The position numbers were made by a program, and so were the translations under genes. A stretch of DNA of 64,000 nucleotides, from assembly GCA_964106645.2 (NCBI GenBank), contig OZ067041.1, one strand, 5' to 3'. Source of the stretch: Podarcis pityusensis (taxonomy: Eukaryota). Numbering within the stretch: the stretch's first letter is position 1; each line of letters opens with the position of its first letter. Of this stretch, positions 1,040 to 35,715 are shown one piece after another. The notes below the pieces were generated by a model. That model searched no databases and was not told the origin of the DNA. It was given only the letters and a program-made list of their open reading frames with translations.

Positions 1040-1231
<192 letters not shown>

Positions 1232-1389
1232 TGAAACTTATCCTACATCATTGTACTTTAAAGTAACCTACAGTGGATTGGTAAGGAATAATAAAGTCAG
1301 GGCCAGCTCAAGACATTTTGCTGCCTGAGGCAAAGGACAAGGTGGCACCCCCCCCAACCAAATGCATACACAGAAGCCGATCTGACTGG

Positions 1390-1512
1390 TAGAATCATAG
1401 AATTGTAGAGTTGGAAGGGACCCCAAGGGTCATCTAGTCCAACCCCCTGCAATGCTGGAATCCCAGATAAAGCATCTATGACAGATGGCCATCCAACCTC
1501 TACTTAAAAATC
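1390..1512 (-). mobile_element. CR1 LINE 3' fragment
   Basis: tagaatcatagaattgtagagttggaagggacccc...gtcatctagtccaacccc is the reverse complement of the CR1 3' end with its ATTCTATG-type tail. Confidence 0.75.
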
Positions 1513-1523
1513 CTACTCCAGTA

Positions 1524-1748
1524 CAGTGGTACCTCGGGTTAAGTAGTTAATTCGTTCCGGAGGTCTGTTCTTAACCTGAAGCACCACTTTAGCTAATGGG
1601 GCCTCCCTCTGCTGCCGCGCCGCCGGAGCACAATTTGTGTTCTCATCCTGAAGCAAAGTTTTTAACCCGAGGTAATATTTCTGGGTTAGCGGAGTCTGTA
1701 ACCTGAAGCGTATGTAACCTGAAACATATGTAACCCGAGGTACCACTG
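1524..1748 (+). mobile_element. Tigger/pogo-like MITE (225 bp)
   Basis: TA target duplication on both sides; TIRs CAGTGGTACCTCGGGTTA / TAACCCGAGGTACCACTG. Strand is arbitrary and is the opposite of the copy at 16631. Confidence 0.9.
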
Positions 1749-2052
1749 TACTACACTTGAGGGCAGCAGGCTAGGAGTGCCACTGAATTCAGTGGGTTTA
1801 CTTCTAAGTGTAGGATTGCACTGTTAGGCTGCGAGTTCATGGACACTAACCTGATAGGAAGCCCCATTGCACAAAGGAGGGCTTACTTCTGAGTAAACAT
1901 GAATGTGATTGCATTATTTTTGCAATCTGAAGAGTTTCCCATTTTGCTGCTATCTCAGCACTAACTGATTTAAATCAGTGTTCATTACGTTGTTGTTTTT
2001 TTACATAGCCCCAAGGAAGTACTGTTGGTTCTGGAGGCAACCACAGCTTCTT

Positions 2053-2228
2053 ACATAGAAAGCTGCCTTATACTTAAGTTACATTATAGGTCCATCTGGC
2101 TCAGTGTTATCTACAGTTGATGAACAGTGACTCTCTTGGATTTAAGACAGGATTGTCTCCCATCCCTTCCTGCAGATGCTGGGGACTGAACCTGGAACCT
2201 TCTGCATTGCAAAACAGATATTCTACGA
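2053..2228 (-). mobile_element. tRNA-derived SINE (Squam3-like), degraded
   Basis: Reverse complement of the SINE at ~22976-23158 (gcagaaggttccaggttcagtccccagcatct ... agctttctatgt). Confidence 0.65.
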
Positions 2229-2676
2229 TCCTCCCCCTACATTCTCATTTAATCTACTTCTGACTATAATGCCTCACTCAGTAATGAAGTATATAATTAT
2301 TTTGATTCTTTATATGCTTTATAAGTTGCCTATAGTTACACGTGTTGATGCGTAAGGGCAGGTTTCTTCCTTGTATGGGCACTATGACCATGTGGGGAAA
2401 GACTGTACTCATTGTATAGTTTTTCAGCAATTCCATATTTGCCTGGGATGCGAAAGGCAAGCCGTCAGGAATTCCTTTTGTAGGGCACTGCGTCCTTTTG
2501 TAAGTTATCTCTGTCCAGTTTAAATGTCTATTTAAAGAGTCTTTGTGCTTGGCACGATGCCTTCTGGTCCAGATTTTTTTGTTCTGGAATTTGTGTTTCT
2601 TTTCAGGAATACAATCTGTCGTGGATCCTTTTAGGGGCCTGCACTAACCTGGACATTTTGTCCATGTAAAGCAAGT

Positions 2677-2924
2677 GTAAGCAAACTTTTTCAGCAGGGG
2701 GCTGGTCCACTGTCCCTCAGACCTTGTGAGGGGCCAGACTATATTGGGGGGGGGGGGGAATGAACGAATTCCTATGCCCCACAAATAACCCAGAGATGCA
2801 TTTTAAATAAAAGGACACATTCTACTCATGTAAAAACATGCTGGATTCCTGGACCATCTGCAGGCCGGATTGAGAAGGTGATTGGGCCACATCCGGCCCC
2901 CCGGCCTTAGTCTGCCTGCCCATG
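2677..2924. mobile_element. hAT-like MITE (second copy at ~35716-35960)
   Basis: Near-identical ~245-bp sequence at both loci (aaactttttcagcagggggctggtcca...gaattcctatg...aaggacacattctac...ccttagt..gcct..ccatg). Confidence 0.7.
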
Positions 2925-3075
2925 ATGTAAAGTAATCTATTTAAACCAAATTGCCTGGGGAGCAAAACAAGGCATATGTGATGCCTCTCAGAGTATGGGC
3001 CGAGACACAACTTCACTGTGGTAGTTATTGTATTATTTAGGCTTCAAATGCAAGTACTGTTTTTGGGGGTACAGG

Positions 3076-3848
3076 GTGTGGGTGGGTGTGGGGGATTCCC
3101 TGGTCCTGAACGGGGTAACTGTGCCCCTGAAGGACCAGGTGCGCAGCCTGGGAGTCATTTTGGACTCACAGCTGTCCATGGAGGCGCAGGTTAATTCTGT
3201 GTCCAGGGCAGCTGTCTACCAGCTCCACCTGGTACGCAGGCTAAGACCCTACCGCCCGCGGACTGTCTCGCCAGAGTGGTGCATGCTCTAGTTATCTCCC
3301 GCTTGGACTACTGCAATGCACTCTACGTGGGGATACCTTTGAAGGTGACACGGAAACTGCAATTAATCCAGAATGCGGCAGCTAGACTGGTGACTGGGAG
3401 TGGCCACCGGGACCACATAACACCGGTCCTGAGAGATCTGCATTGGCTCCCAGTATGTTTCCGAGCAAAATTCAAAGTGTTGGTGCTGACCTTTAAAGCC
3501 CTAAACGGCCTCGGTCCTGTATACCTGAAGGACCGTCTCCACCCCCATCATTCAGCCTGGACACTGAGATCCAGCACCGAGGGCCTTCTGGCGGTTCCCT
3601 CATTGAGAGAAGTGAGGTTTCAGGGAACCAGACAGAGGGCCTTCTCGGTAGTGGTGCCCACCCTGTGGAACACCCTCCCTTCAGATGTGAAGGAAATAAG
3701 CAGCTATCCTATCTTTAAAAGACATCTTAAGGCAGCCATGTTCAGGGAAGTTTTTAATATTTAACACTGTACTGTTTTTAACACTTGATTGGGAGCCGCC
3801 CAGAGTGGCTGGGGAGACTCAGCCAGATGGGCGGGGTATAAATAATAA

Positions 3849-3890
<42 letters not shown>
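3076..3890 (+). mobile_element. L2-clade LINE 3' fragment (ORF2 RT C-terminus, 3' UTR, (TAT)n tail)
   Basis: ORFs 3028-3291 and 3276-3764 give VRSLGVILDSQL...ISRLDYCNALYVG...QNAAARL...DHITPVLRDLHWLP...RAFSVVVPTLWNTLP, with a frameshift near 3250, a stem-loop 3' end and a TAT tail. Confidence 0.9.
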
Positions 3891-6252
3891 TGCATTCTGC
3901 AGAGAGATCACTTTCCAGTCTTTAGTACTAACCATTTAGAAGAGGCATTGTACGTCTTCTTCACTGGCTGCACATGGCCTCACAAGGAAAGTGCAGATTC
4001 CAGGGCCAGCACTGTGTTGATGTGACACTATATCACTGGAATATAGAACCACTCAACACCAGCATCATATATTGATGCAACTTCATGGCATAAACATTGT
4101 AATGCAATACGATGATTATTTTTGTCTCTCTGCAATCAACCTCGTTTGACAGTGCTGCTGCCTCTCTCCCCACTATGTCCTTCTCATGGCAATTGCTGGA
4201 AGAGAAAAGAAAAATACCTGGCAGTTTTAGCTCACTTTCCCCCCTCTGGCCCCGTTCCATGAATGAATAGCAGTTTGGTAGTGAAGCAGTTACAAGCACA
4301 CTGCTCTCATTCATGCATATATCAAATAGAAACTTCAGAAAGTGTTTTGAGGAGGTATGTGTATCTCTCAAAGCAAAATCACAATAGCTATTTGAGATTC
4401 CACGTAGGATCTATATAAGGTGAGTACAACTATAAACCCAATTAAGCCAGACTTTAGGAATGGTGCTGCAAAGGTGGCTGTCTTCTGGAACTGCTTTCTT
4501 AAATGATGTATATGAAGTCATGTGAAGTGAGAAATGGCTATATTCATAGCCACTAGAATGCTAGCAGACATTTGGTTGGTAATTTCTACTTCTATAAAGC
4601 ATGGACTATGGGAGACTTGGGTTTAGAGGTTTTGTCCCTTAAAAAGTCAGCCTCTGCCCCCCACTCTCTTTCCAGCTTCATGTCATACTACTACATATAT
4701 AAATGGGTGGGGGCAACCAATTCAACAGCCAGACACCTTTTGTGTAGCCCCAGGCTTAAAACAAAACAAGCTAAAATATAGAAAAGACTATTGTTAAAAT
4801 GTAATTAAAGGTTACATTGGCTAGGGGATATTATAACAACAACAACAACAACTTTTTTACCTAGTCCCTGCCTATCCCTTGTGAGGTGACAACAGACTAT
4901 GAGGCTCTAACAGCTTAATCTTATTCATAGCTTAACATGCACCAAGCCATTCAGTCGGGTGTGAAGCATTAAACTAATAAGCAAATACCAGGACTAAGTT
5001 CCACTACTAGGATTGAAGCACGTTCCTGTGCCTGACAAGCTGGACACAGCACAGTTGGCATCCCAAACTCCTAAAAACGGCTGGCAGCCACGGTTTCTAT
5101 GGAGAAAAAGGCCTCATAGGCCTAGTGCTGAATTTTGAAAAGGGTCAGGGTTTCAGGTTATCCTGCAACCTTATTCTCCGGCCTGGAAACCTTGTCTCTG
5201 TATCTCTGGTATGGAAATGAACTCTGCTACTTGTTTTCTTTATGTATAACAATGAATGGCTATTTACCCCGTATGAACTTAGGTTGATGACACTTGAGTT
5301 GTCATCAGAGGCCTTGCTTCAGACGCCTGCCCTTTTGAGATACTGAGAGTGGTGATGGGAGACAGTCAGGGCCTCTTCTGTCATGGTCCTGGGTCTTTGG
5401 AAAATCCTCCTCAAAGAGGGCTGCTTGGCACTGACAGTGCTTTCCTCTAGACAGCTAATTATTTAATTGTTATTTATTCTTACCACTGCTTACAATGCTG
5501 CTGTTACAATTTTTTTAAATGTTTTGCTTATCTTGCGACTTTATATGATGGGAGCTATATTATGTTAAGAGGTGGCCTACATGAGTATTTGGATTTTGGG
5601 GTTTTTTTGTATGGTGTTGCTTATTGCTGATGCTTTATATTGTTGTTGTTTAATCTGCTGTTTATTAATTGATGTTTTTTGATTGGGGACTCAGCTATAT
5701 GGCTGCAAATGTAATGTTTTAAGCGCATTATACAAATGTGACACTAGATGGCTCTAGTGAGCTAATGGCAAATTCCACATACTGTATATTTTTAAACTTT
5801 TTTTTAAAGCACTTTCACAGCATTTTTAAAATATATATGTGTAGATTCAGCCTGGCTTTTATGTCTTTATTATTGTTTTAATTTATATTTCCACATTCCT
5901 GCCCTTTAAACACCTCCAAGGTGGCTTGCAAAAGGTCATCTAACAATATCAAGATAAAACTCACTTCAATTAATGTAATAATAATAATAGTCCAGGTAGC
6001 AATACAGCTGGAGGGGTGTGATTGCCTTCCCTTCTGCGGCCTAAGCAATGGACGTTGGTGCTTGGGGAGAGGGAACTCGCTGCTAGGAGCTGTTTCTAGG
6101 CTTGGTGTAAAAGTTGTTGCTTTCCTTCTCTCTGAGATCCCAAATCAGCAACCTCCAGCTTTTAGGATTTTTAGGATTCTTTCAAAATATTGTGTTACTT
6201 CAATGGAATATGGGATATAATAATAATAATAATAAAAATAAAAATAAATAAT

Positions 6253-6690
6253 TTTTATTTATACCCCGCCCTCCCCAGCCAAGACCGGGCTCAGGGCGGC
6301 TAACAAGCAATAATAAAAACAAGTTAAATGAATACAACTGAAAAACAAGATTAAAATACAACATTAAAATATTGAAACATTAAAATATTAAAATGCAGCC
6401 TCATCACAGGAGGAGAAAGGAAAAAGAAAAAGAAAAAAGAAAGAGGGGAGGGGAATCAAATTGGCTCCAAGCCAAAGGCCAGGCAGAACAACTCTGTCTT
6501 ACAGGCCCTGCGGAAAGAAATCAGATCCTGCAGGGCCCTGGTCTCATGAGGCAGAGCGTTCCACCAGGCCAGAGCCAGAGCTGAAAAGGCCCTGGCTCTG
6601 GTTGAGGCTAATCTAACTTCCTTAGGGCCCGGGACCACTAGGGTGTTGCTATTAATGGACCTTGAGGCTCTCCATGGGGCATACCGGGAG
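6253..6690 (-). mobile_element. L2-clade LINE 3' fragment
   Basis: Minus-strand ORF ...RARAFSALALAWWNALP...FRRACKTELF and the characteristic gccgccctgagcc...gggcggggtataaataaa 3' end. Confidence 0.8.
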
Positions 6691-7446
6691 ACAAACAAAA
6701 ATGCACTCAAAATATATTACATATATAACAATCCAGCGAAAGTGAATGTTTTATTGAATTGATTTCATTAGGAAATTCAGCAAGGGAGAACACTGAACAT
6801 GTCTACTGACATGTTTGATGGGACTTACTCCCAAATAAGTGGGGTACAGAAATATATAGTCACACACAGGCTTATGCAAAGCAGGGTGGGGGCAGCTAGG
6901 TACATTCGCCCTGGGCCTTGGAGGGCTTGGCTGGCCGGGGGGCAGGGCACAGGTTGGCCTGCCAAGGGACCACCTGCTTTTTTTGTTTGAGTTTATAACT
7001 TTATTCTAACAAGACTCCCAACTAGGGCCTCAGACAAGCTCTGCACGGGCCCGGTCACACCCTTAGCTCTCATGTTAACATCAAGAGGACTTAAAAGGTG
7101 TTTCATTTTGGATTACCACACCCTATATACATATGTATACAGAATTATAATTACTATCTTCCTCCCAGCTTAGCGATGAGCCACCTGTTGCCCCTGGGCC
7201 GTGCAGCGCTTCTCTCAGGTCCAGGGTGGTTGGGAGGTATGGGGCATTCTTGACATGACAGTTTAAGTCTGGCGTGCCCCTGGTGGAGGGGCCCTGGTCA
7301 GCTTAGCCCCGTGAGGTCTAGGGCAAGTGTACCTGTCTTCCCCCATCCCTCTTCATGGGCCTGCCTCCCTCCTTCAGAGTTCTCGGACTCCAACTACCAA
7401 CTTCCCAGCAGCCTTCTGGCTCCCACACCACTTCAAAATTCACTAA

Positions 7447-7689
<243 letters not shown>

Positions 7690-7874
7690 TGACTCTGGGT
7701 TGCCCTACCCCTTGCAAGACTGCCAGTCCTGCCAAAGTCCTGGTCGATCTGTGTGTGCGGCTTGAGGTCTGTTAACAGCATTTGAAGACAATTGAAAAAA
7801 ATGCAAGTAGCACAGAACGCAGTCGCCAGGTTGTTGACAGAGACAGGGCATTCTCAACATAAAACACCAGTCAT

Positions 7875-8183
7875 GGTGAGCTCCCGTTGCTCTGTCCCAG
7901 TTCCTGCCAACCTAGCAGTCCGAAAGCATGCCAGTGCAAGTAGATAAATAGGTACCGCTGCGGCAGGAAGGTAAACAGTGTTTCTGTCCGCTCTGGCACT
8001 CGTCAGAGTGTCCCATTGTGCTAGTAGCATTTTAGTCATGCTGGCCACATGATCCAGAAAGCTGCCTGTGGACAAATGCCGGCTCCCTCGGCGAGATGTG
8101 TGAGATGAGTGCCGCAACCCCATAATTGCATTTGACTAGACTTAGCCAGCCAGGGGTCCTTTATCTTTTATCTTTTTACCTTA
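7875..8183 (+). mobile_element. Sauria SINE (5'-truncated) inserted into an old L2 fragment (~7790-8500)
   Basis: Core ctgccaacctagcagt...gtgcaagtagataaataggtaccgc...gtcatgctggccacatga with a degenerate (ACCTTT)n tail. L2 sequence (QNAVARLLT... then ...FKVLVL) resumes after it. Confidence 0.85.
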
Positions 8184-10981
8184 CCTGCACTAATTGCCAA
8201 TTTGTTTCCAAGTCAAATTCAAAGTACTGGTTTTGACTTTTCAAAGTATTGCATGGATTGGGAGCCCAGTACCTCGAGGACGACCTTTCCCCATATGAAT
8301 CTACCTCGATTTGAAGAAGGGAATCTCTGTATGTTCCCTGCAAAGATGTTCAGAGGGTGGCAATAGGAAAACAGATGTTTTCTGTGGTAGTCCTATGCTT
8401 ATGGGAGACTCTCCTCTTGAAAGCTTGTCTGCTGCTAACATTGTCATCTTTTCAGCACCAGGAGAAGATGTATTTATTTTTCTGGCATTTACCCAACAAT
8501 AACAGTCTGGCTTTTAGCAGCTATTTCTTTTGGGACCATTCTTGGGTGGTATGGTTGCTTGCAAGTGATTATTGTAGGTGAACACATTTAGTATGTTGCA
8601 TTGTTTTAAATGGACATGTCTCTTCTAGGTTTTTCTTTCTTTTGCAAGTTGCTTCAAGACTTCTTTGATGGTGGGAAGCAACACATAAATTCAATAAACT
8701 AAATTGTATTCAATAAACTACACTTACCCTGTGTTCTCCTCATAATGCAGGGGTGGAGAGACACTTGCAGGGGAAAGCTGGTGGGAGGTGTTTAACCCTT
8801 CTCTGCCCTTCAGTTTCCCCTTGCAAATGGCCCTGTGTAGTTTTTAATAGTTCCCTGTCCCCATCTGGGCTCCTAAACTGGAAGGAAGCCCAGTCAAGGG
8901 GGTGGGGGGTGGTGGATTGTAGTACCATTTGGACAGAGGAAACCTAATACAGTATAGTGTTCAGGTATGAAACAGGAAAGAAATGTGTGTACACACACAA
9001 CAAATTTAACATGTTCACCTTGAAGCTCCTATTGTTTCAGTGGGCATAACTCTCAAATTAGCATACATAGGCCTGTAGCAAACTTAAGGTGCTTTTTGCT
9101 CAGGGCAGTTGTGGCTGGAGCTTTGCCTGTATAAGTGCTTGGGGGCTCTTTCTTGCAAGGATTCTGCAGTGTGCCATATCACAATTGCAATATGTCAGAT
9201 TCAAGTTCTGCACTAAAAGCACACACACCCCAACTGCAATTCTTGATGCATGAAGATAGGAATAGGGGTGTGAGCACTGGAGGAAAAAAGGGGGAGGAGG
9301 AAAGACAATAAAAGCGCTAATGGGATGGCTGGACCAATAGGAAGAAGAAGGAGCAGGTTGGAGAACCACTGGCAGTAAAGACAAACCTCAGCTTGACTAT
9401 ATCTCCTACTTCTGAGATCTGGGGGGGATGAGGAAATGTTGTTTCTCCCAGCCAGCCAGCCAGCCACACTCATTTATGACTCTTCCTCTTTCTCTATCCA
9501 CTAGCCTGGTAAGTGGAACAGCAGTGGTCTGCAATCTGAGAGCCATTGCTTGGGGCACACATCTGTTCTGCAGCTTCACCTGTCATCAGTCTGGGGGGGG
9601 GGGGGAAACAATGCAATATGCCCACCATCAGAATTGCAAAATTACTGTAGGTCAGTAGAAGCAATAACCAGAAACAGTTGCATTCTGAGACCAGGTTAGG
9701 CTGTAGTCCAGTCTGACATGAAAACAGTGTCACCGTGCAAAACCACTGGTTAATCAGAGCAAGAAACTTTTATGGTTAAACTTCTGATCAATCTGTTTTA
9801 GGGCTGTTCATACAGAGTTCAACATGCAACATATTATGAATTCCTTTTAATTTTCAGCAGTTCGTTTTCATGATTTTCATTTTCGGTAGCTCTAAGGGCC
9901 ACAAAAGCAGTTGTTTTAAACCTATGCACCATTCTAATGTTATCCTCATTAAGATCAGTTGGACATGTAAAAGAAGTCATCACCCTGGAATGTTAATCTC
10001 AGCCAACAATCATCACATATCAGATGGCTCCCTCCTAAGTAGAGACACAAGTTGTAAGTCATACGTATTTGCTGAAGTATTCCGTTATGCCAGTTCTCCC
10101 CAATCTTGTTTCATTACTTTAAATGATAAATGCTCACACAATCTTGCTTGTTTTCTAGGTTTTAAAATGGCAAAATAAAGTTGCAGACTATGTGACTTTT
10201 AAGTGTTTGGCACACTACATGAAGGATCTGTATTGAATGCTAAGGATGACAGTAAATCTATCAGAATTGTCACCTTATTTGTTTTTTTAAATTCATGCAC
10301 TTTTATTGGCAGTCTAGCTCTCAGGAATAGAGTAGATGAAGCATCTCCTCCAGTGGAGATTAAATGGTGGAAAAAAGGCTCACATGGTTTCTGTGTTATA
10401 AAGGCACAGTATCTCAACACAATACATCACTAAAATAACAGGCACATTGTAATTAACACAACAGCCAAATCGCTCATTCTTTGGAGGACATCAATGCCAG
10501 AATCAAAAAGGAAAAGTAATTGTCCGAAGCAGTGCCACCAACACTTGACCAGCATTTCATAGGGGAAACCTCCAACTAAAAATCCCCATTTAAAATAAGC
10601 AAATAGAAAAAGAACCTACCCAAGTGAGGCTGGCAGAAACCTCCACACATACCCTCTGTAAAAGAATCAGGCAGAGGGCCTTCTCGGTAGTGGCACCCTC
10701 TCTGGAACGCCTCTCTTTGGTCAGGGGTTGAAAGTAGTGATGAAGGCTGCAATCCTAACTCCACTTGACCTAAGAATAAACCCTTCTGGGTTCAACAGGA
10801 CTTCTGAGTAGGCATTGCACCGGTCAGTTATATACACATACAGTAATGCTATTTGAAGTTCAATACCTGTTTTATAGGGAACAAAAAAATATTCCCGAAG
10901 AAAGGCATATAGCTTGAAATGTGTGCATGTTGTCTTTCTTTGAGCTTAATAAACGTAGTTTCTTATGCATCTGTACGCTGA

Positions 10982-11254
<273 letters not shown>

Positions 11255-11728
11255 TAGCTTAATTTCCCTAACTGCCATTTCAGGTGTCTGTTTCAATCTT
11301 GAACTCAGAAGGTTTTATCATGAGCCTAGAGAAAGAGAGATGCTACTTGTCAAATGAGCAGATAGGGACAAGGACGTTACTGCCCCTGTGGCTTCCTTTT
11401 TAATCTCCATCTTACCCGAAAGGGTTCTTAATGAATCACCCCTGTAGGGAATAGACAGGGTGAAGAAGAACAATCAAGTACCTTCTGATCCTCAACAGCC
11501 TCACTCCTGTCCCTTTTAAATGTATCCTAGTGTTTTGAAATGTTTTAACTCATAATGCCAGTAAAGGTGTTTGTGTTTGTCAATTTGCTACCTGTCCCTC
11601 TTCTCTGAATCCTTGCTCTAGGAATATACCTATATGCACAATTTTAAAAAACGAAACCCATATTTGGATAGCGATGCAGGTGACTACTGACAAATAATAG
11701 GCCCTGTGTTCTTTCTCAGAAGTTCTCT

Positions 11729-11985
11729 NNNNNNNNNNNNNNNNNNNNNNNNNNNNNNNNNNNNNNNNNNNNNNNNNNNNNNNNNNNNNNNNNNNNNNNN
11801 NNNNNNNNNNNNNNNNNNNNNNNNNNNNNNNNNNNNNNNNNNNNNNNNNNNNNNNNNNNNNNNNNNNNNNNNNNNNNNNNNNNNNNNNNNNNNNNNNNNN
11901 NNNNNNNNNNNNNNNNNNNNNNNNNNNNNNNNNNNNNNNNNNNNNNNNNNNNNNNNNNNNNNNNNNNNNNNNNNNNNNNNNNNNN
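11729..11985. other. Assembly gap (257 N) in ADPRHL1 intron 4
   Basis: Run of N. Confidence 1.
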
Positions 11986-13006
11986 GGATTAAGTTGTATA
12001 GGTCTGGTCTGCTTTTGACAGAAGGATGCTGTCACTCTTCTTGCACGATTCCAACCCTGAGTAAAATATGCAAGACTCCTAAAGCATGCATCTGTCATTA
12101 TGGAGTGAAGTGCAATGCTATTTTAGAAATAAATAAAGGGGACGACATTTTAAAAAGCCTGCCTGAAACAAATGTGAGCCCCTTTTCTCAAGGGATCTCT
12201 CCTTTTGAATTATTCAGTCAATTTCTTTTGTTTTTGTTTTCTTTAAAAAAAGCACATTTGTTTAATGTTTCCTGTTCTGCATATTCTCACTCTGTAGTTC
12301 TCAGAGGCAACTTTACTGCTAGGTAGCCACAAGTGATCACCTGTGGTAGCACTTAGTACAGACAGATGTTTGCTATATGCTGCAGAAGATGATGCCTAGA
12401 ACTTCTTTGACAAAAGTCAGCCTTCTGCTCAGGGACAGCATAGTGCAAAGGGTTTCAGGGCTGTAAAGAAGAAAGGAAGGGGAATGAAGCAAGGGAAAGA
12501 TGGGGAGGAAAACCATATGTCTAAGGCCATAGGTAAATAACAAGAGGCTAGTAAGAAGCATCTCTCAAGTGCCTTTGGGGGGAATCCCAAAAGCAGAAAG
12601 CTGAGCAATGTGACTGTGAGGGAACAGGTGTTGGGAGGGAAGATCCTGACGAGCAAATAGTCAGGTAGGTGGATGAAAATGACTGGCAGGTCAAGGATTT
12701 CCAGGATCAGCTGTGATACAGAATGTGCGACATCAGAGTTTCACCTACTTAAAAGGCCTAAGGTATCCCTGGCTCCCTCCGGATTGCAACAAGAGATAAA
12801 GTAACTTTTCAGTCAGCAGGGATCAGTAAGCTATTTGCAGGGGGATAAGAAAATTATGTTTTTGTTCCTGTCTTCAAAGTGCAAGTGGTACACATACTGA
12901 GAAAATGAGCATAGCCTGCCTTTCTCAAACTGAAGCAACTTCACAAATGACTTTTTCATAATCAGCAGCAATCTGGTGTTTAGGAAAAAAAAGTTTTCCT
13001 CCAGAC

Positions 13007-13143
13007 CAGCCTTTCTCAACCTTGAGTCTCCAGATGTTTTGGGACTACAGCTCCCAGCTTCCCTGTCCACTGGTCCTACTAGCTTAAGGATGATGGGAGT
13101 TGTATTCCAACAACATATGAGGACCAAAGGTTGAGAACAGCTG
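13007..13143. mobile_element. Palindromic hAT-type MITE (~137 bp)
   Basis: Fold-back structure; 8-bp TSD ctccagac / ctctagac; same family as ~40162-40304, 45213-45348 and 60021-60156. Confidence 0.8.
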
Positions 13144-13870
13144 CTCTAGACTCAATATATAAACTGTGCTGCAAATGTTTGTTTTGCTACAGATACAGTG
13201 GTTCAGGAAGGTATGCTGAATATTGGTGGCAGAAACAAAGCTACAGCAATGGATGCTGCAGAAGTGGCAGGGATGTTGCTTCCTGTAGGAAAATGTTTCA
13301 TGTGAAGCACCACCAGTTTATAAAGTGCACCCTCTCTAGTTTTAAGCATCTTTTGGGTGCATACTCGGAAAAAGCTGCACAAATGGGTAGAGATGCCCAT
13401 CTTAGTTTATTTGCAGAGGCTGCCTTCTGAAGATCATACTGCAAAAAAAAAAAAAGGTGTTACTGCCAGCTGCCTTATCAGGTAGCATACAGCCTGCACT
13501 CAAAATAGCTCCTGTTGAGACTTGGGAGGGCTTCTTATGCTTTTGCTCAGTATTCAGGACCCAGTAGTAATTGCTGAATGGACTACAGTAAAAGTTTGTT
13601 TGTAGGTTTAATAGACTCTGTGATCTACATTCTGGTTTTCCAAAATGTGTGTCTGGTGGCCCTAATTATTTGTATTTAAATCTATTGTATTAAAATCTAT
13701 CCCCCCCTTTTTTTACATTGTGAAGATAAGCTAATTAGTATTGTTGAGAGGCTAAGAATAGTTGGACAGGTTTTATTTAATTTTCTTCATGAGAGTTCTG
13801 TAAATTGGATTTTGTCATTCATGCTGTTGCACTGAAAGAACCTATTCAAGATTAAATGTACCATAATTAA

Positions 13871-14146
<276 letters not shown>

Positions 14147-16287
14147 TAAGTTTACTGAATGACTCAAGCCTATGGGACAAATATTAGATTGGTGCTAGGT
14201 TGAGTGTAGGGGTGGGCTTCTAGATATGATTGCAATCCAATTCCCATCAGCCCCATTATAGACATTGGCCAGGGATGATGGAAGTTGGGATCCAGCAGCT
14301 CTTGAAGTTGCTGGATCAACTTCATATTCCATGTGAGATGGGGAATAGGAGATCCAAGGGTCACACCATTGCAGCTGGAGGTGAAGGGAAGAGCCAGCAG
14401 TGTAGCTTAAGGCGGTCATAATATTGGGTTCCAGATGTGGCAGCTAATGTGCAGATGGTCTAGAACGACAAACATTGCAGTTCAAAGCAGGAAAAAGATC
14501 AGGTTACAGAGGTAGAATGTGGGAAATGGTGGAAAGCAGACATTCTGGCAGTCTCCTCAACAGAAAAACAGTATGCTTAGATTGGGGAGCAGAATTTAAC
14601 AAAGCTGAGGTTTTATAGGGTCAGATGGAACTGAATTAGCTGTCCAGGTCACCAAGCAGATGCTGAGGTTGGGTAGCAAGGACTGTGAACATGCCTCTAG
14701 CAATCTAATTCTGCCTACCACTCTTTCAGCAGACATGCTAAGTTGGTGGCACAAGAGGTAAGAAGATGTCCATGTCTGTTTGCTGGTGGCTCCAGTTATA
14801 TATCCCAGGCACTCTATAAGAGCTGCAGTTTTTTCAGACCTGTGCGCTGCTGTGCTCTCTTTATTTTCTTAACTGAGATCTGATTCAAATGCTATGACTA
14901 TCGTACTCCTGCATGACAATGACTCCACGGGGTGCCTCTGACATTTGAAACCCCCTCACCACCTGTCTCATCTGGGTTGCATAGATAGTCTTCATTACAA
15001 TGCCAGTATTCTTTAATGCATTATCCCAGTGTACGAAACTCTCCACGAGATCAGGTGACCTACCTCATGAAATGGCTCTCTTGTCACTCATGCAAGCCCT
15101 TTCCTCACCAGTATTCCATACGAAGTTACAATATGCACAATCCATTCTGTTACTTGGAGACTTGCCCCAAACAGATTGCACCCAAGTAAAAGGCAACAGC
15201 ACTTAAATAGGATGCAAATTTTGCCAAGAACATTATGGTAGTATCTACTTACATTTCAGCATTTCACGAAGTTGCAGTACAGCAGAAGCTGCTGTTAGAA
15301 AAACTATTACTAAGAATTCCAGTATCATCACTGGATGTAGATGTGACAATTGCTTAGCGGTCAGGATGTTTGTTTGCTTGTTTACTTGGAGCACCACTTA
15401 TAGTACATTAAGATCTTCTCTATGGCCTTTGCTGCTCATTCTGTGAAGGCTACAGCTTTCAAAAAGCGTTGGCTAACTGTGACCTTCTTCTGTAGAAATA
15501 TACATGTATGCTCAGTATAATGTGATACCCATGCAGGAAACCATCATCTGTGCAATAAGGACCTTCAATCAGCAGATAGGACAAGTCCCGGTTAAAACTT
15601 TCTGGATCACACACTGACTGTCTGTCTCTCTATTTTCTCCACCTCTTTACAGAAAGTGTTAAACGGTCAGTGAATGAAATAAAAAGGTTTGCCAAGAACA
15701 ACAAAAACGGTAACATGCAGTTCCCTCTCTGAGGAAGCAACCTTGTGGGATTCCACATTTTTATAGACTTAAGTGATAAACTGTAGGCAAGTTTTGAAAA
15801 CACATAGGCAGTGTTGCAAATGCCATCATGGTAATGTCAGAGAAGCAAATGACATCATCATCACCATCACCACCATCTTCATCATACAGTAATCTCAGAT
15901 AAACTGATGGAGGCAAATGGAATCCTTATTTGTGAAGGAACCCAAGAAAGATGAGCTATCTAAGAGATTGCCTTAATGTGGTTCCCCCAAAGCCAAGAAA
16001 GGCCATTTTCATCTTGTTTCAGATTAAATATTTTTTTAAAGAAATATTTAATGTATGCTAAAGCAAGGCTTGACTACACACAGAAATAAGGAATGAGCAA
16101 ATGCCACTCCAATATTTTTAAAAATAAACAAAAAAGGGAGTATTTTAAAGCACAATCTGCAATTTACCTCATGTTTCTGTGCCATGCTATGAAAAGAAAA
16201 AGAAAAAAGGCAAAGTAAAAGAGTGGCATTTAAATCTGTATATTCTGGGTTGCGTTGCCATCAAATTCACCCAACCAAACTCATTAA

Positions 16288-16437
<150 letters not shown>

Positions 16438-16630
16438 TAATCTAGTAGTTCCTTCATGTCGGTTCCTTGTAACCATAACAGCAAAATATATTCGGCATAC
16501 AGACCATTATAATTTTTGATTAGGGTCAGTTTGGCTACATTAGGTGACTCACTAATAATTCTAGCTCTTTCCACTTACTACAATCATTGAAGTATCTTGC
16601 ATCTAAAGCACTTGTTGTACTTTCCAATTA

Positions 16631-16856
16631 CAGTGGTACCTCAGGTAACATACGCTTCAGGTTACAGACTCCGCTAACCCAGAAATAGTGCTTCAGGTTA
16701 AGAACTTTGCTTCAGGATGAGAACAAAAATCGTGCTCCGGCGGCGCAGCAGCAGCAGGAGGCCCCATTAGCTAAAGTGGTGCTTCAGGTTAAGAACAGTT
16801 TCAGGTTAAGTACGGACCTCTGGAACGAATTAAGTACTTCACTTGAGGTACCACTG
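16631..16856 (-). mobile_element. Tigger/pogo-like MITE, inverted copy of 1524-1748
   Basis: TA TSDs, CAGTGGTACCTC TIRs; interior is the reverse complement of the 1524 copy. Confidence 0.9.
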
Positions 16857-17363
16857 TAGTAATTATTGCAGTAATGTTGTGCTGGTTGGGAAAAGCTTCA
16901 TTTCTTATTCCCATAAAGGAAGTGGCAATCCTACTATCAAAGAAAAATTAAGCCACAGGAATTGTGAGGTGTGTTTTTTTAATCTACGAAAGATTATATG
17001 GTCTACACCTATGTTTCACAACTAGTTTTACAGCAGGGGTGTTTCAAGGAGATGACAGGCAAAGTGGCAAAGTTTGTTAAAGGCACTGGCCTTAACAAGC
17101 TGTGGTTCCCATAATTCTTTAGGAGAAGTCATGACTGCTAAAGTAGCCTAAGAGTGCTTTAAAGGTAGGATGTGATTGTGACATGAAAGACCAATTGTCA
17201 GCATGGGAATTGGGCATGTCTTCTTTGGGCTGTTTCCACATTAGAGTTGTTCCCCCCCCCCCAGTGACTTTTTTAAATGTTTCTGCCAACCTGATACTTG
17301 TCTCTTGGTGGTGCCAATTTGGACCAGCGCTCAGAGAACTGAGATTGCTCTTAATATAGATGA

Positions 17364-17585
<222 letters not shown>

Positions 17586-22975: not shown

Positions 22976-23158
22976 GGAGGACTGTAGTTCAGTGGTAGAG
23001 CACCTGTATTTCATGCAGAAGGTCTTAAGGTCAATCCCTGGCAACTCCAGATAGGGCTGAGAGACACCCTTGCCTAAAATTCTGAACAGCCATTTCCTGT
23101 CAGTGTTGACAATCCTGAGCTAGATGGACTTATTGCCTGACTCAGGCAAGTTCCTGTG
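22976..23158 (+). mobile_element. tRNA-derived SINE (Squam3-like)
   Basis: Head tgtagttcagtggtagagca (A box) ... ggtcaatccctggca (degenerate B box), followed by a non-tRNA body ending gagctagatggac...ggcaagttcctgtg. Confidence 0.75.
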
Positions 23159-23290
23159 TAAAAATAAAAAATAAAGCGGTATATAATCTTGTTTAATAAA
23201 TATAAACACATTAAAACCAGTAAGGAAGTAAAAGCAATGTTGATGACTTTCCCTGGACAAAAACAACAACATTCGTTTTCTTTTATGCAG

Positions 23291-26200
23291 CAGAAGTAAA
23301 GGTACAAAGCTGGGCAGTGATAAGGTGCTGGTTGACCCCATAGTGCTGAAGAAGAAGCTCAGTAAGATGTCCACAGAACTAGGTGCATTTGCTGTCCTCA
23401 GCAGCCTTCTACTTTACCTCACAGACCTCCTATCCAGCCGACCCCAGGTCGAGAGCAAGAAGGCCAAGTGGCTCGAAGGGATAGAGAACAAGGTGAACTC
23501 GAGGCGCGAATGCCATAGCGCACATGGCGGCATTCGTCCCACCAAATTCCAGCTTCTGCAATCGAGGTTCATGAACAACAACCGCGAGGCCTACAGGAAA
23601 AGGTCGAGAGAGGTTGGCAAGCTGGTCGTTAAAGAAAAGCAGAACAGAAATGGGCTAAACTCCATTGTAAGCAAGCTGGACAAAAGCTCCTCAAAAGAAG
23701 GAGAAAGCCCAGAGATAACACCCCACGATAAAGTCAAATGGGTCTGCTCAACTGGGAAAAATACTGTGAAGAATATCCTGAAGAAATTCTTAGTTGCTGA
23801 GGAAAAAGAAGCTAAAGAAAGAGAAAAGCAGGTGGCTCCAAAAAAGAAGACCCCAAACGATAACCTGCCCAAGATAATCAACAAAAACTCTGTCTTGTCC
23901 AAACTGAAAGAAAAGTTTGAACAAAGCAGTAATATCTGTTCAGCCATTGAGGTGAAATCTTTGCTGCCGCGCAAAGGCGAGAGAAAGAGCAAAAAAGGCC
24001 CAGAGAGAAAAAAGATTTGCAAACCTGAAATAAGAGTGCTTGAAAGGAAACTAAGGACAACCACAATTGTCAACAGCCCTCAGCCTCAACAGCTGGTATT
24101 CACAACTGTCCCTACACCTAAATTCTGTGTTGCTACTGAAATTAGTCACCCTTGGAGCTGGGCTACAAATGCCAAGTCCGCCACTCAGCCTTCTGAAGTG
24201 GGGAGGCCAAAAGACACCCAGAAAGCACCTGGCATTGGGTCGCATGACAGCAAGATACCAGAAAGCATGACACATAAAGGGCAACTAGGAGGACAGTTGC
24301 AAAACAAGCATCATGAAATGCCTAAGGTGGTGGCTGACAAAAAGGACATTGTCAAGAGTAATGTAACTCCTACAAGCCCAGGTTCTAATCAAGACAGTGT
24401 TCTTCCTTCACGTGAAAATGTGTCCCTTGTTGATTGCATTCCTCCTTTATCTAAGGACAGCTTAGATCACAAAGAGAACATCATACCGCCTGTGGATGAT
24501 ACCTTTTCCAGGTCCAGAGACAAAAATGCAGCAAAAATCATGAGCAGAGAAAACATACCTACTAACGACCTCTCTTCTAATCCAGCTGAAGGAGTTCATG
24601 TACATAGTCACCAGGAAATGAAAGAGGATGGGATTCCTGGCATACCAGAAGGCATGTTCAGGCCAAAGGAGACAGAAATAGAATTAGCAGAGCCTATAAA
24701 AGATCCCCCATTCACCAGCCAAAAATGTTTCTCTGAAAAGAAAGTGTTGGAAAATATTCCACCATTTCTCTCTCCTGTAGCTCAGGCATCTTGTAACAGA
24801 GAGCCTCCAATAAAGGACCAGCAATCAAGTGTTGAACCTGCAGCTGTTCACAAAATGCCTCCGCTTAAGCCAAGTCAAGATAACGCACAAAGTTTGGGGA
24901 GCACATTTTCTGACACGGTTCAGAACAAAGAGAAGCTGCCTGATAAGGAGGAACTATTTCCTAGCCTTAACAAAAGCGACCATGCGGGTAAAGCAAAAAA
25001 GGGAGTGCTACAGCCATCGAGAAGCCAAGGTGAGCCATCTGATCAACAGGCAGAAAGGGAGCATTTGCCCAAGGAGCCACAATCACATCCAAAGCTGAGC
25101 CAACAAAATAACCCTAGCTCAAACATATCAAAACAGACTTTAGATCAACCACACCAAACTCCTACTTCAAATAGGAGCCAGAAAGACAACAATGATTTAA
25201 AAGGAAATGATTTTGAAAAAGAGCTTTGCCCTTTGACTGGCGATTTAGATAAATCCAGCTGTGTTAGAGCAGCAGAGAATACTAGCAAAGCTGAACTGCG
25301 CTCAGATAATGAAAAGACAAATTCTGAAAACAAGAGCAAAAAGGGAAATAGTAGCTTGAGCCATTTGGATACCTCTCAGAGGCTGCCGGAAGAATTCATC
25401 AGACACGAAACTGGCAATCTGGAAAAGAATCCTACACCTCCTTTTCAAAAATCTCACTCATCCTCACTAACCGACTCAGCAAATCCAGAAGGCGATACTC
25501 CAGAAGTCGACAGACCTTGGTGCAGTGTTGGAAACCTCCAAACCCCAACATCAAATGCAGTGAAAAAGAAAGAGAGCTGTATTGTAAGAGATAATGCAGC
25601 CAGTCCTAATTCTGAGAAACACCACTTCCCTTCTCCAGCTGAATTGCTGAAGCCCAAGGGGGCACCTGGGCAAGACAGCAAGCCAACAACAAGCAATTTG
25701 TGCAATGATTTAATTAAGAGTGAAAACCATGCTGTAGAAGTTGAGGGTATGAGTCCCCAGACCAGGAAGTATCAACCAGCCTCAACAAAGGAGACTAGAA
25801 AGCGTGAAATTAGTCCTGTAGGGGAGGCAAGCCCCGCGCACAATGTGGAGAAGCAGCAGGTGCCCTTAGGAAACAAAACTGGGAAGCAGGAAAGCATAAA
25901 AGTGATGGCAGAAGTAAAGCCTGAGAAAAGCGGATTTCCCTCCCCAAATGAAACAGTAAAGCAGGGGAACAGTGAAGGAGGAGAAAGAAATCTACTGAAA
26001 GAAGTACAATGTCTAATTCCATCATCTGTTGACAGAAAGGGGCAAGATGATAAGGTAACAGAAGAGAAAAACTCTATAGTGGGAGGTAAGAAGTTGGTGC
26101 GTAACTCCAATATGCCCCAGAAATTAATAAAAAGTGACCTTGCAGAGGGTGGTGGTGAAAGAGCAGGTTCACAGCAGCTGACCCCACCAAAGCATAAACC

Positions 26201-27707
26201 TAGCAGGCCGGGAGTGTTACCTTCCCCAGATAACTCAAAATGTCAAACACCATCAAGAGATCCAGAAAAAGGTGGAACTGTTGCATCAAAAGATGAAAAC
26301 GCTGCAAAACACCAGCTCTCCACACTCAAAGAACCAGTGAAGTGTGATGATAATGCTAACCAAAGAAATGCCCAGGATAGCCTTAAGACTAAGAGTGACA
26401 AAATACCATTATCTGGCAAGAAAGTGAAACCTGAAAGCAAATTGGGGAAGACGAAAGAGAACACTAGTAATTCTGGGCAAAACCAGTTACCTTTGGAAAA
26501 TGAACTTCCAAAGAGTAAAAAGGCTGAGCCAATGAAACCTGCAGCAGAGAAGTCACAGAAACCATCTTTAGATGACTCTAGAAATGGACTTCCAAAGAGT
26601 AAAGAGACTACTGTAAGCAAATTGGGGAAGACAAAAGAGAACACTAGTAATTCTGGGCAAAACCAGTTACCTTTGGAAAATGAACTTCCAAAGAGTAAAA
26701 AGGCCGAGTCAATGAAACCTGCAGCAGAGAAGTTACAGAAACCATCTTTAGGTGACTCTAGAAATGGACTTCCAAAGAGTAAAGAGACTACTGTAAGTAA
26801 ATTGGGGAAGACAAAAGAGAACACTAGTCATTCTGGGCAAATCCCGTTACCTTTGGAAAATGAAGTTCCAAAGAGTAAAAAGGCTGAGCCAATGAAACTT
26901 GCAGCAGAGAAGAAACCATCTTTAGATGACTCTAGAAATGAACTTCCAAAGAGCAAAGAGACTACTGTAAGGGAGAGAGGTACTTTGTGCAACCTTAAGG
27001 AACATCAGATACCAGCACCAAATGAATCAAAGACTGAGCCAGTAAATCTTGCAGCAGGGGAGCCGCAGAAACCATCCTTGAATGACTCTAGAAACCATGA
27101 GGATATTGCTAAGAATGAAAAACGGGCTTCATGGAATTCTAAGAACCAGCAGCTACCCTTATCAGATGTGAAACAGGAGAGCCATCAATATAGTGTCACA
27201 GCAGGGAAACAGCAGCAGCAACCACAACCACCAAAGGATTATGTCAAGCCTAAATCTAGTATAAGAGATGGAAAGCATATGCATCATAAATCAGAGAAGT
27301 ATCGTCTTCCTGCCTCAGATGAACTGGGAGTGCATGAAAAGAATGCTAGTGAAAGGAAGGGTTCCTTGGCTCCACTTTCAAGTCACGATAGGACCATGCA
27401 AAAGAAGAAAACACTATGTGAGACTGATACTGGTCCCAAATTGGGCTCACCGAACAAGACATGTCCTGCAGAACAGAGAAAACCACAGCGTAGTCCTCCT
27501 GGCAAGTACCAAACTCTGTCAGCAAATGTGCTATCAGAGCAAGGAAGTGGGGAATCTCAAAAGCTCGGGGCTGATGCAATAAGTCAGAAAGCTAGATCAC
27601 TAGCCTTGGAAAAATACATAGCAGAAAGCTACAGTGAAGAACTAGTACCTTTGTCTATTAAACCAATGGTTGTTCGTGTGATTGATACAATTAAGCTTGA
27701 TAACTAA
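23291..27707 (+). CDS. ADPRHL1: ADPRHL1 giant terminal exon 8 (long isoform; 1,471 codons of extension)
   Basis: Polypyrimidine tract plus tgcag| at 23290. Exon-7 AA + C restores the frame of the 1,460-aa ORF (23325-27707). The N-terminal part (AVLSSLLLYLT, RPTKFQLLQSRF, KNTVKNILKKFLVAEEKEAKE, SVLSKLKEKFEQ) matches my recollection of the human long ADPRHL1 isoform. Confidence 0.88.
26436..26969 (+). repeat. Coding tandem repeat, 180 bp (60 aa) x3, plus a degenerate partial fourth copy at ~27030-27095
   Basis: Units start at 26436, 26616 and 26796 (SKLGKTKENTSNSGQNQLPLENELPKSKKAEPMKPAAEKSQKPSLDDSRNGLPKSKETTV). The third has an in-frame 6-bp deletion. Confidence 0.95.
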
Positions 27708-28629: not shown

Positions 28630-29135
28630 ATATTTCAGTGGAGGTTTTTCAACAGAGGCTGAATCTGTCAAGGTTGCAGCAGTTCGTTGGGAACCTGTGG
28701 ATACTGCCAGACTACAAATCACCCCAGACCACTGGCCATGCTGCGAGAAGCAAAGTTACAGAGAACAAGGCAGAGGGCCTTCTCGGTAGTGGCACCCACC
28801 CTGTGGAACGCCCTCCCATCAGATGTCAAGGAAATAAACAACTATCTGACTTTTAGAAGACATCTGAAGGCAGCCCTGTTTATTTTTAGTATTTTGTTGA
28901 AAGCCGCCCAGAGTGGCTGGGGAAACCCAGCCAGATGGGCAGGAAACAAACAAACAAACAAACAAATGTTATAATTATTATAATTATAGGGTTCATGTCC
29001 AATACTACCTGGAGGGCCACATATTTCTGTCATGGTTGCATTGTAGGTTCTGCCCTCAGTAGGGGATTAGACAAGACTGAGCAGGAGATTAGACCTCTAA
29101 GATCCTTTTCCAACTCTGAAATTGTATGATTCTAT
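28630..29135 (+). mobile_element. Nested TE cluster: CR1 3' end interrupted by a hAT-type MITE that itself contains an L2 3' fragment (~28740-28945)
   Basis: CR1-like ggaggtttttcaacagaggctg ... cttttccaactctgaaattgtatgattctat; MITE halves (gactacaaatc... / ...cctggagggccaca); L2 RAFSVVAPTLWNALP. Confidence 0.6.
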
Positions 29136-33615: not shown

Positions 33616-34260
33616 ATTCGTTCCACTGATAGCCGTACTCGTTATGACTTGGTTTAAGTCTCTTTTAAAGGTATTCACTACATCTTGTAATATATACCCA
33701 TCGCGCTGGTTGTTGGTTCCTACTCAGGGGAATGTTATATACCGGTATTCTCCATCTTGCCATAGCTAGAACTACACTATAGTAGAATACAACAATTGCT
33801 TAGTTTCAAAGCTCACCAGTGTCAGACCTCAAAATCTGTTTCATACTCCAGCATTTATACAGTGGTGCCTCGCAAGACGAAATTAATTCGTTCCGCAAGT
33901 CTCTTCGTCTTGCGGGTTTTTCGTCTTGCGATGCACGGTTTCCCATAGGAATGCATTGAAAATCAATTAATGCGTTCCTAGGGAAACCGCCTTCAGACCA
34001 GGTCCGGGGACAGTCTGTCCCCGGACCTCTTCTGAAGGCTGGGGGGGGGGATAAGGGCTTTTCTTCCCACCCCCAGCATTTAAAAAAACCCCGGGACAGC
34101 GGAGGACTTCTCCGCTGTCCGGGCAATCTTAAAATGCTGGCGGGCGGCATTTTAAAATCGCCCCAGACAGCGGAGGACTTCTCCGCTGTCCGGGGCGATT
34201 TAAAAGCCCCTGGGAAGGCAGGCAGGGGGGACAAAGACTTTTGCCCCCCGCCAGCCTTCA

Positions 34261-34716
34261 GAAGGTGTTCCCGCCCCCTGCCCCGCTTCGGAGCACCGTT
34301 CCGAAGCGGGGCGGTGGGGGAAGGTGTTCCCACCCCCCCACCCCGCTTCGGAGCACCGTTCCGAAGCGGGGCGGTGGGGGAAGGTGTTCCCACCCCCCGC
34401 CCCGCTTCGGAGCAGCGTTCCGAAGCGGGGCGGTGGGGGAAGGTGTTCCCACCCCCCCGCCCCGCTTCGGAGCACCGTTCCGAAGCGGGGCGGTGGGGGA
34501 AGGTGTTCCCGCCCCCCCGCCCCGCTTCGGAGCACCGTTCCGAAGCGGGGCGGTGGGGGAAGGTGTTCCCGCCCCCCCGCCCCGCTTCGGAGCACCGTTC
34601 CGAAGCGGGGCGGTGGGGGAAGGTGTTCCCGCCCCCCCGCCCCGCTTCGGAGCAGCGTTCCGAAGCGGGGCGGTGGGGGAAGGTGTTCCCGCCCCCCCGC
34701 CCCGCTTCGGAGCACC
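34261..34716. repeat. GC-rich minisatellite, ~60 bp x ~7.6, each unit a hairpin
   Basis: Unit contains ccgccccgcttcgga-(7 nt)-tccgaagcggggcgg, a perfect 15-bp stem. Confidence 0.95.
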
Positions 34717-35325
34717 GGGAGAAGCGATCTCCCCGCAGCCCCTTGCTTCAAAAGAGGTCCGGGGGCAGCGGGGAAGAAGCGCTGCGCTTCGCGCTGCCCC
34801 CGGACCTCTTTTGAAGCAAGGGGCTGCAGGGAGAAGCGATCTCCCCGCAAACCCTTGCTTCAAAAGAGGTCCGGGGGCAGCGGGGAAGAAGCGCTGCGCT
34901 TCGCGCTGCCCCCGGACCTCTTTTGAAGCAAGGGGCTGCAGGGAGAAGCGATCTCCCCGCAGCCCCTTGCTTCAAAAGAGGTCCGGGGGCAGCGGGGAAG
35001 AAGCGCTGCGCTTCGCGCTGCCCCCGGACCTCTTTTGAAGCAAGGGGCTGCAGGGAGAAGCGATCTCCCCGCAGCCCCTTGCTTCAAAAGAGGTCCGGGG
35101 GCAGCGGGGAAGAAGCGCTGCGCTTCGCGCTGCCCCCGGACCTCTTTTGAAGCAAGGGGCTGCAGGGAGAAGCGATCTCCCCGCAAACCCTTGCTTCAAA
35201 AGAGGTCCGCGGGCAGCGCGAAGCGCTTCGCGCTGCCCCCGGACCTCTTTTGAAGCAAGGGGCTGCAGGGAGAAGCGATCTCCCCGCAAACCCTTGCTTC
35301 AAAAGAGGTCCGCGGGCAGCGCGAA
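34717..35325. repeat. GC-rich minisatellite, 112 bp x ~5.5, each unit a long hairpin
   Basis: Units start at 34717, 34829, 34941, 35053, 35165 (103 bp) and 35268 (partial). Stem gcagccccttgcttcaaaagaggtccgggggcagcg pairs with its reverse complement over 36 bp. Confidence 0.95.
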
Positions 35326-35715
35326 GAGAAGACCCGCTGTCCCCGGGGCAAGCTTCGTTTTGCGAAGCAAGCCCATAGGGAAATTCGCCTTGCGAGGCAA
35401 CTCGAAAACGAAAAAACCTTTCGTTTTGCGAGTTTTTCGTCTCGCGAGGCGTTCGTCTTGCGGGGTACCACTGTACTGCCAATTCTCCCCCTACCCCTGC
35501 CCACCTCCCCACAGGTTGGGAGTGCCACATGTACAGAGTGCCTTCCTAACCCTATGGAATAACCACAGCCATAGATCAGGATGGGGGGGGGGGATAGAGG
35601 GAGACCTGTGGTCTGAGTTCAGCACCTCTCAGCTAATTTTATTCAGCTGCAACTCTCTACACCAGGGATAGCAAGTTGCCTGGAAGTGACTCTAGCAAAA
35701 TAAGCTGACATAAAA

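Follow-up and report, generated by a model that had tools for sequence, protein, structure and literature searches.

The window, that is, the whole 64,000-nucleotide stretch of Podarcis pityusensis DNA analysed here (contig OZ067041.1), carries exons 2–8 of ADPRHL1 (ARH2) of this lacertid lizard, and exon 1 lies beyond the window. The gene is laid out as follows:

1044–17581, plus strand: coding exons 2–7 of ADPRHL1, located by tblastn with the Podarcis lilfordi protein and bounded by AG/GT
1044–1208, 7523–7648 and 11046–11186, plus strand: exons 2–4, ADP-ribosylhydrolase-like (ARH) pseudoenzyme domain
13887–14014, 16300–16432 and 17428–17581, plus strand: exons 5–7, ADP-ribosylhydrolase-like pseudoenzyme domain
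17578–17585, plus strand: splice donor of exon 7 (AA/GTAA), lying over the stop codon that ends the 40 kDa short form
23291–27707, plus strand: coding part of exon 8, a large last exon with an open frame of about 1470 aa, mostly disordered

Joined to the acceptor at 23291, exons 2–7 agree with the P. lilfordi protein at 310 of 311 tested residues, and the first part of exon 8 (hereafter the block) is 98% identical to the ADPRHL1 of P. lilfordi and to P. raffonei proteins. The acceptor is a tandem NAGNAG (23289–23293) usable at 23291 or 23294, both in frame, with N-R or K at the junction, and the spliced frame of exons 7 and 8 is open to the stop at 27707, which gives an in-frame splice onto the ARH exons. 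Left unspliced, exon 7 ends in SSEEK and a stop, and when spliced it continues as SSEEN-RSKGTK; since the donor overlaps the short-form stop, a single splice choice separates the 40 kDa protein from a form of about 1,825 aa. This long form is predicted from the open frame, its conservation and public gene models. The 40 kDa ADPRHL1/ARH2, a PF03747 pseudoenzyme, comes from the same gene and its domain is included in the long form, but the accessible parts of the published functional work cover exons 1–7 and merely note exon 8 as predicted, partly conserved with mammals (Smith et al. 2020, PMC7390403).

A preliminary description of this DNA had picked out a hydrophobic helix and three amphipathic motifs at the start of exon 8 and likened the latter to short helices of actin-associated proteins. 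All four strings lie where it placed them, in one open frame: AFAVLSSLLLYLTDLL at 23385–23432, KFQLLQSRFM at 23544–23573, TVKNILKKFL at 23763–23792 and VLSKLKEKFE at 23892–23921. Its block, set to begin at 23370, in fact starts about 40 bases earlier. The nearest known counterpart of these motifs is the SFM, the F-actin-binding motif of Paraschiakos et al. 2026 (PMC13364712). According to the accessible text of that paper, it is a nine-residue helix whose positions P1, P4 and P8 enter the cleft between actin subdomains 1 and 3 of the filament with a Kd of 2–12 uM; P1 and/or P8 are essential, and P4 and P9 tune affinity. P1 is hydrophobic (V, with I/L accepted), P4 is Leu-like, P8 is Phe, Ser/Thr are enriched at P-2 to P0, and Glu at P9 is regarded by the authors as an affinity modulator that is not essential but whose absence lowers affinity. 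The same text reports filtering for a disordered region and a helix by IUPred, ANCHOR and PSIPRED, followed by AlphaFold-Multimer docking on actin (ipTM >=0.6, ITPKA orientation); docking was passed by just 59 of the 539 sequence hits of the first round, which makes a sequence match a weak predictor. The resulting list holds 124 motifs from 103 genes (PMC13364712, Supplementary Table 3). With SFM positions assigned, the conserved elements of exon 8 are:

23337–23435, plus strand: conserved helix pair (aa 15–24 and 29–47), including the hydrophobic AVLSSLLLY helix with LxxLL
23367–23369, plus strand: in-frame Met, aa 25; many gene models start here or at a nearby Met, giving exon-8-only proteins
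23547–23573, plus strand: motif 1, FQLLQSRFM (P1 F, P4 L, P8 F, P9 M), SFM-like with a non-canonical P9
23607–23624, plus strand: REVGKL linear motif, its R, E, V, G and L unchanged between teleosts and human; no SFM fit
23655–23681, plus strand: degenerate fourth copy, LNSIVSKLD, with L at P8
23766–23792, plus strand: motif 2, VKNILKKFL (P1 V, P4 I, P8 F, P9 L), SFM-like with a non-canonical P9
23895–23921, plus strand: motif 3, LSKLKEKFE (P1 L, P4 L, P8 F, P9 E), canonical SFM sequence
24720–24746: conserved island QKCFSEKKV, aa 476–484 (amniote consensus FAxQKCFPEQKVLENIPPF)
27612–27704, plus strand: conserved C-terminal tail KY..ESYS..KP..R..DT, aa 1440–1470, present in teleosts too

Conservation was assessed in 103 named tetrapod homologues (18 squamates, 5 turtles, 1 crocodilian, 46 birds, 31 mammals and 2 amphibians) among 120 listed of 148, the 17 without a source name being left out; the counts below refer to these listed sequences. 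The core pattern [VILFM]xx[LIMV]xxx[FWY] is present in each of motifs 1–3 in 103 of 103, and the only other core match in exon 8 is kept in 6 of 103. Phe occupies P8 of all three motifs throughout the tetrapods, and P4 is L, I, M or V in every homologue (L, I and L, respectively, in the lizard). Glu at P9 of motif 3 is invariant in tetrapods and teleosts, and the same position is M, L or Q in motif 1 and L, I or A in motif 2. Ser or Thr occurs at P-2 to P0 of motifs 1, 2 and 3 in 103, 99 and 97 of the 103, the mean top-residue frequency of the three is 0.89, 0.93 and 0.92, and the spacings between them range over 68–81 and 33–47 residues. The fourth copy is possibly an SFM-like, lineage-variable element: F stands at P8 (LNSIISKFD or LNSIVSKFD) in 4 of 18 squamates, including snakes and Varanus, and birds are without the copy. 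The human conservation stated in the preliminary description is borne out by NCBI human isoform X2 (P0134), which has FQLLQAKFL, VKNILKIFL and LSKLREKFE.

Among the 80 matches of a profile search across 1.84 billion representatives were ARH-fused orthologues at about 70% ARH identity, and one named teleost among them led to four more. All six divergent matches examined carry the ARH domain; the other divergent ones, many of them 500–800 aa long, may include a paralogous family. In the five named teleosts, 14 of 15 motif copies have the core (5/5 for motif 1, 5/5 for motif 2 and 4/5 for motif 3) at only 25–28% block identity to the lizard. Their exceptions at P8 are Y in motif 1 and L in motif 3 of Pangasianodon, the latter being the sole core miss. 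Between fixed anchors the residues drift, VKNILKKFL becoming VQDMIAKFA and LSKLKEKFE becoming LSSLMEKFE, and these teleost versions shift toward other listed SFMs. Anchors held at such low block identity point, at the protein level, to purifying selection. Thus the orthologue alignment that had been proposed as a check finds the three motifs, with the P1/P4/P8 anchors of the SFM, retained in tetrapods including human and in teleosts.

Recurrence of the core is higher than chance, with qualifications. The first 300 residues contain 3 core matches against 0.67 expected (P=0.028, 5000 sequence shuffles), and the windows in which 90% or more of the homologues have the core number exactly 3, where shuffled alignment columns give 0.09 (P=0.0002), but both values are optimistic because the core pattern was widened with the motifs already in view, and the shuffle P values overstate the case because the homologues are related and their counts are not independent. 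The stricter published SFM pattern finds one match, motif 3 (P=0.044). The amphipathic character ascribed to all three motifs reaches the 95th percentile in motifs 2 and 3 and is only moderate in motif 1 (78th percentile), whose hydrophobic moment is modest.

Motif 3 has every sequence feature of an SFM, including Glu at P9. Motifs 1 and 2 share with it and with the published class a predicted helix, a predicted disordered setting, upstream Ser/Thr and conserved anchors, but they have Met, Leu, Ala or Gln in place of Glu at P9 and are therefore labelled SFM-like only. Close precedents exist in Supplementary Table 3 of PMC13364712: FGD1 VSSLIEKFE is identical at 7 of 9 positions to motif 3 of Osmerus (LSSLMEKFE), and PLEKHG3 VRNLREKFQ, ANK3 LSSIRLKFE, CALD1 VRNIKSMWE and ARHGEF11 VRNIIQHFE are similar. 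The same table offers precedents for the odd positions, namely Phe at P1 as in motif 1 (FYB2 FKELRAKFQ and neurabin-1) and Leu at P9 (SVIL VAQLRSAFL), and it also lists neurabin-1/2, LIMA1/EPLIN and XIRP2, so that all the look-alikes named in the preliminary description turn out to be SFM carriers. Several SFMs within one disordered region, as proposed for exon 8, occur in neurabin-1/2 (PPP1R9A/B), PLEKHG3, SORBS1/2, SHROOM3 and XIRP1/2; no sequence homology was detected between the block and these proteins, and its spacing is long and irregular. Unlike the 103 listed genes, ADPRHL1 is absent from the final table (124 motifs), although a human protein set was scanned (PMC13364712), and its motifs sit in the alternative last exon of a pseudoenzyme. 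It is also absent from the searchable part of the source data, and it was not found in the accessible main text of the preprint (bioRxiv 2025.04.16.649135). The accessible 78 of 769 candidate rows all have ipTM >=0.60, so a docking failure of ADPRHL1 could have gone unlisted; as far as these portions of the source go, the gene could have been removed by a filter, could have fallen at the docking stage or could lie outside the scanned set. Among the records listed by isoform, actin and interactome searches of the ADPRHL1 literature, none describes these exon-8 motifs, and the literature found gives no direct actin-binding site in the protein. The three motifs are real, have apparently gone undescribed, and are candidate additions to a motif class that is itself already known, with binding predicted from sequence. 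The reading we favour, at a probability of roughly 60%, is that the three exon-8 helices form a trivalent F-actin anchor of SFM type.

Basic amphipathic helices are generic, and a different partner has to be weighed. The helices may bind calmodulin or another EF-hand protein, a myosin light chain or an LxxLL-type groove, their likeness to the SFM being what any basic amphipathic helix displays, an alternative that we consider unlikely. In its favour, most SFM sequence matches fail docking in the accessible data of PMC13364712, the LxxLL of the hydrophobic helix is present in 103 of 103 listed homologues, and a 1-5-10 pattern at aa 191 is present in 84 of 103. Against it, aa 1–300 contain no IQ-like or 1-5-8-14 patterns, only 4 of 103 listed homologues retain the 1-5-10 and export-signal patterns overlapping motif 2, the PP1 RVxF pattern is kept in just 15 of 103, and the 1-4-8 spacing occurs three times and persists in teleosts. 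Other actin-related families were sought as well. According to the accessible text of PMC13364712, WH2 resembles the SFM as a short helix in the same actin cleft but differs in binding the monomer and in having the opposite polarity; the LKKT/V-type tail that follows a WH2 helix, sought as L[KR][KR][VTA], is absent from aa 1–300, and Pfam gives no WH2 match in exon 8. A Xin repeat in exon 8 has no Pfam match at E up to 10, and the motif spacing is 33–81 aa, unlike the short tandem period of Xin repeats. Nothing scored above a curated Pfam cut-off in the exon as a whole, the block, 11 aligned members, the helix pair or the tail, so the family search that had been suggested for the block leaves it unassigned.

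The block had been described as ordered, and the structure predictions do not bear this out. AlphaFold2 with a 46-row alignment gives a pTM of 0.19, a mean pLDDT of 57 and five separate helices at aa 15–24, 29–47, 84–93 (motif 1), 157–177 (motif 2) and 201–211 (motif 3), of which the helix pair alone is confident (aa 11–50, pLDDT 73–88). Because the model shows isolated helices, the first ~290 residues of exon 8 are best read as a predicted disordered, basic region (64 K+R vs 30 D+E) with conserved helical motifs. The disorder that the SFM filters demand is likewise read from this AlphaFold proxy, isolated helices at pTM 0.19, in place of IUPred, ANCHOR and PSIPRED. It could nevertheless be argued that the conserved segments pack into a compact fold, together or onto the ARH domain, that was missed for want of a deep alignment, with the F and L residues forming its core. 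Conservation does extend across ~290 aa (mean top-residue frequency 0.66 for aa 1–300 vs 0.33 for aa 301–1440), and a comparably shallow alignment did not recover even the ARH domain, whose folding is established: the prediction for ARH plus helix pair reached pLDDT 45 and pTM 0.38. But the linkers vary in length, are polar and Lys-rich, the segments between motifs align poorly and with gaps in teleosts, and the model consists of isolated helices; a hidden fold is thus quite improbable. A PDB search with the single block sequence found no match, the profile match to exosome Csl4 in the PDB (E~0.9) is taken as chance, VIA-align of the block model reached an uninformative best Z of 4.3 with generic helix pairs, and an Atlas feature search placed XIRP2-like and CRYBG1 clusters at 0.76, below the noise level. 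The helix pair can be aligned in teleosts too. Its hydrophobic helix was also considered as a conserved membrane anchor and rejected, since hydropathy differs between lineages (best 19-residue value 1.7–1.85 in lizard, chicken and turtle, 1.05–1.31 in a caecilian and three mammals). A homodimer prediction for the pair, made with the alignment not used, scored 0.02 and is evidence neither way.

If the three helices do act as an F-actin anchor, each motif would fold upon binding the filament, and three of them in a basic chain could provide avidity and reach neighbouring protomers or two filaments, with motif 3 presumably the strongest. The overlap of donor and stop in exon 7 would then be a switch by which the pseudoenzyme domain gains an actin anchor and a long spacer. 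The long isoform would keep the ARH domain close to filaments, and behind would follow ~1,150 disordered residues and the conserved tail. Splicing at this overlap would toggle the pseudoenzyme between free and actin-anchored states, the three peptides would join the SFM list, and variants in exon 8 would merit attention. Conservation past the motifs (AEEKE, REVG and LPKI) indicates that contacts besides the SFM anchors matter, and REVG, AEEKE, LPKI, the helix pair and the tail are left unexplained by the SFM reading. Ahead of REVGKL, a basic stretch is present in 102 of 103 listed tetrapods.

A broader proposal accommodates some of these elements. Exon 8 as a whole, with helix pair, three SFMs and tail, might be a multivalent F-actin-binding or bundling module found throughout bony vertebrates, whether fused or as a separate product, and in its boldest form it might be a separate protein whose translation begins at a conserved Met inside the exon, which would give the locus a second, hidden product; both versions are possible, if tentative. 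Exon 8 contains the start of human RefSeq isoform X2 and of many models from birds, turtles and mammals, which have no ARH domain. In the listed homologues, 42 of 46 birds and 22 of 31 mammals have a Met in the columns of aa 9–14, and 17 of 18 squamates have one in those of aa 21–28. These exon-8-only entries are predicted models and may reflect either genuine internal initiation or annotation fragments. A search of intron 7 for an alternative first exon, by tblastn with the stand-alone N-terminal extensions, gave only short or gapped matches and no convincing one. If the proposal is true, the fused form would bring the ARH cleft to actin filaments, and a separate product would escape the exon 1–6 lesions of the published work, as far as its accessible parts describe them. 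The exon-8-only models P0020, P0026, P0059, P0070, P0078, P0100, P0106, P0116 and P0117 were misleadingly labelled by automatic annotation (as titin homolog, collagen-like, SRRM2, serine-rich adhesin and NACA-like), and the exon-8 block may have been overlooked because of such names.

What an actin anchor would mean for the heart is a separate question. In the literature, ADPRHL1 is linked to myofibril assembly in frog and medaka and to adhesion in human cardiomyocytes, and separately to actin assembly (PMC4990356); an Icelandic QRS study, as cited in PMC7390403, ties it to a human conduction trait. The literature drawn on also includes PMC10601310, PMC12044080, PMC8427608 and bioRxiv 2023.02.07.527494. 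The preliminary description went on to propose that the long isoform may tie the pseudoenzyme to actin filaments and so offer a mechanism for the known myofibril phenotype; spelled out in full, the tether would be to sarcomeric actin, and loss of the isoform would cause the embryonic myofibril defect. Some findings are consistent with this: in the accessible text of PMC7390403 rescue by a 40 kDa transgene is only partial, the gene structure implies that exon 1–6 lesions would also affect a fused long form, and a partly accessible source gives the chicken gene eight exons, 1,934 aa and expression in heart and muscle, isoform unspecified. The accessible data on the forming heart nevertheless point the other way, as two exon-8 probes showed little cardiac expression in the forming Xenopus heart, tadpole gut contained a large species of ~100 kDa, and the critical residues lie in exon 6, in the cleft loop (PMC7390403). 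Heart blots show species of 40, 25 and 23 kDa (PMC4990356, PMC7390403), and Smith et al. 2016, in the text available, localise the 40 kDa form, which is without exon 8, beside Z-discs and report that it disturbs and branches myofibrils on its own (PMC4990356). The proposed mechanism therefore does not hold up well against little exon-8 expression in the forming heart and a 40 kDa form that gets to sarcomeres without that exon, and we regard it as quite unlikely. The Xenopus exon-8 data, in the parts of PMC7390403 at hand, concern the forming heart and tadpole, with adult or amniote hearts outside their scope, and an SFM-type anchor would more likely act in a post-embryonic or non-cardiac tissue than in the forming heart. 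Thus the tie of the motifs to the embryonic phenotype is weak; for this little-studied long form of ADPRHL1, actin binding is plausible on the strength of its motifs, and an explanation of the myofibril defect is unlikely.

The remainder of exon 8 had been characterised as low complexity. It is indeed mostly disordered, but the islands at aa 476–484 and 1440–1470 are conserved. In teleosts the tail reads KYRT..Y.D....Y.PK.IRFTDTF, while the rest of exon 8 is fast-evolving, and the last 30 residues have a mean top-residue frequency of 0.68 in the listed homologues. The tail has no Pfam match, and an Atlas feature search returned KIAA1210 at 0.77, which is sub-threshold. An in-frame 180-bp tandem repeat lies at 26431–26971 of exon 8 (3 copies, 93% matches), and the repeats in this part of the exon differ in other species.

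Several further observations concern the surroundings of the coding exons. A sequence at 22978–23160, some 130–310 bases upstream of the exon 8 acceptor, is what we take to be a tRNA-like element of SINE type; ARAGORN called no tRNA there. An ORF fragment at 3195–3764 in intron 2 presumably resembles the C-terminal end of a LINE reverse transcriptase, and similar fragments occur near 28738–28974 and 57486–57704. Intron 4 contains an assembly gap, a run of N at 11729–11986, and a GC-rich (62%) tandem repeat array at 33800–35700 is the source of many spurious ORFs. In chicken, the neighbour of ADPRHL1 is GRTP1, and a GC-rich segment at 54700–55900 (52% in the 54001–56000 bin) may be the promoter of the next gene.
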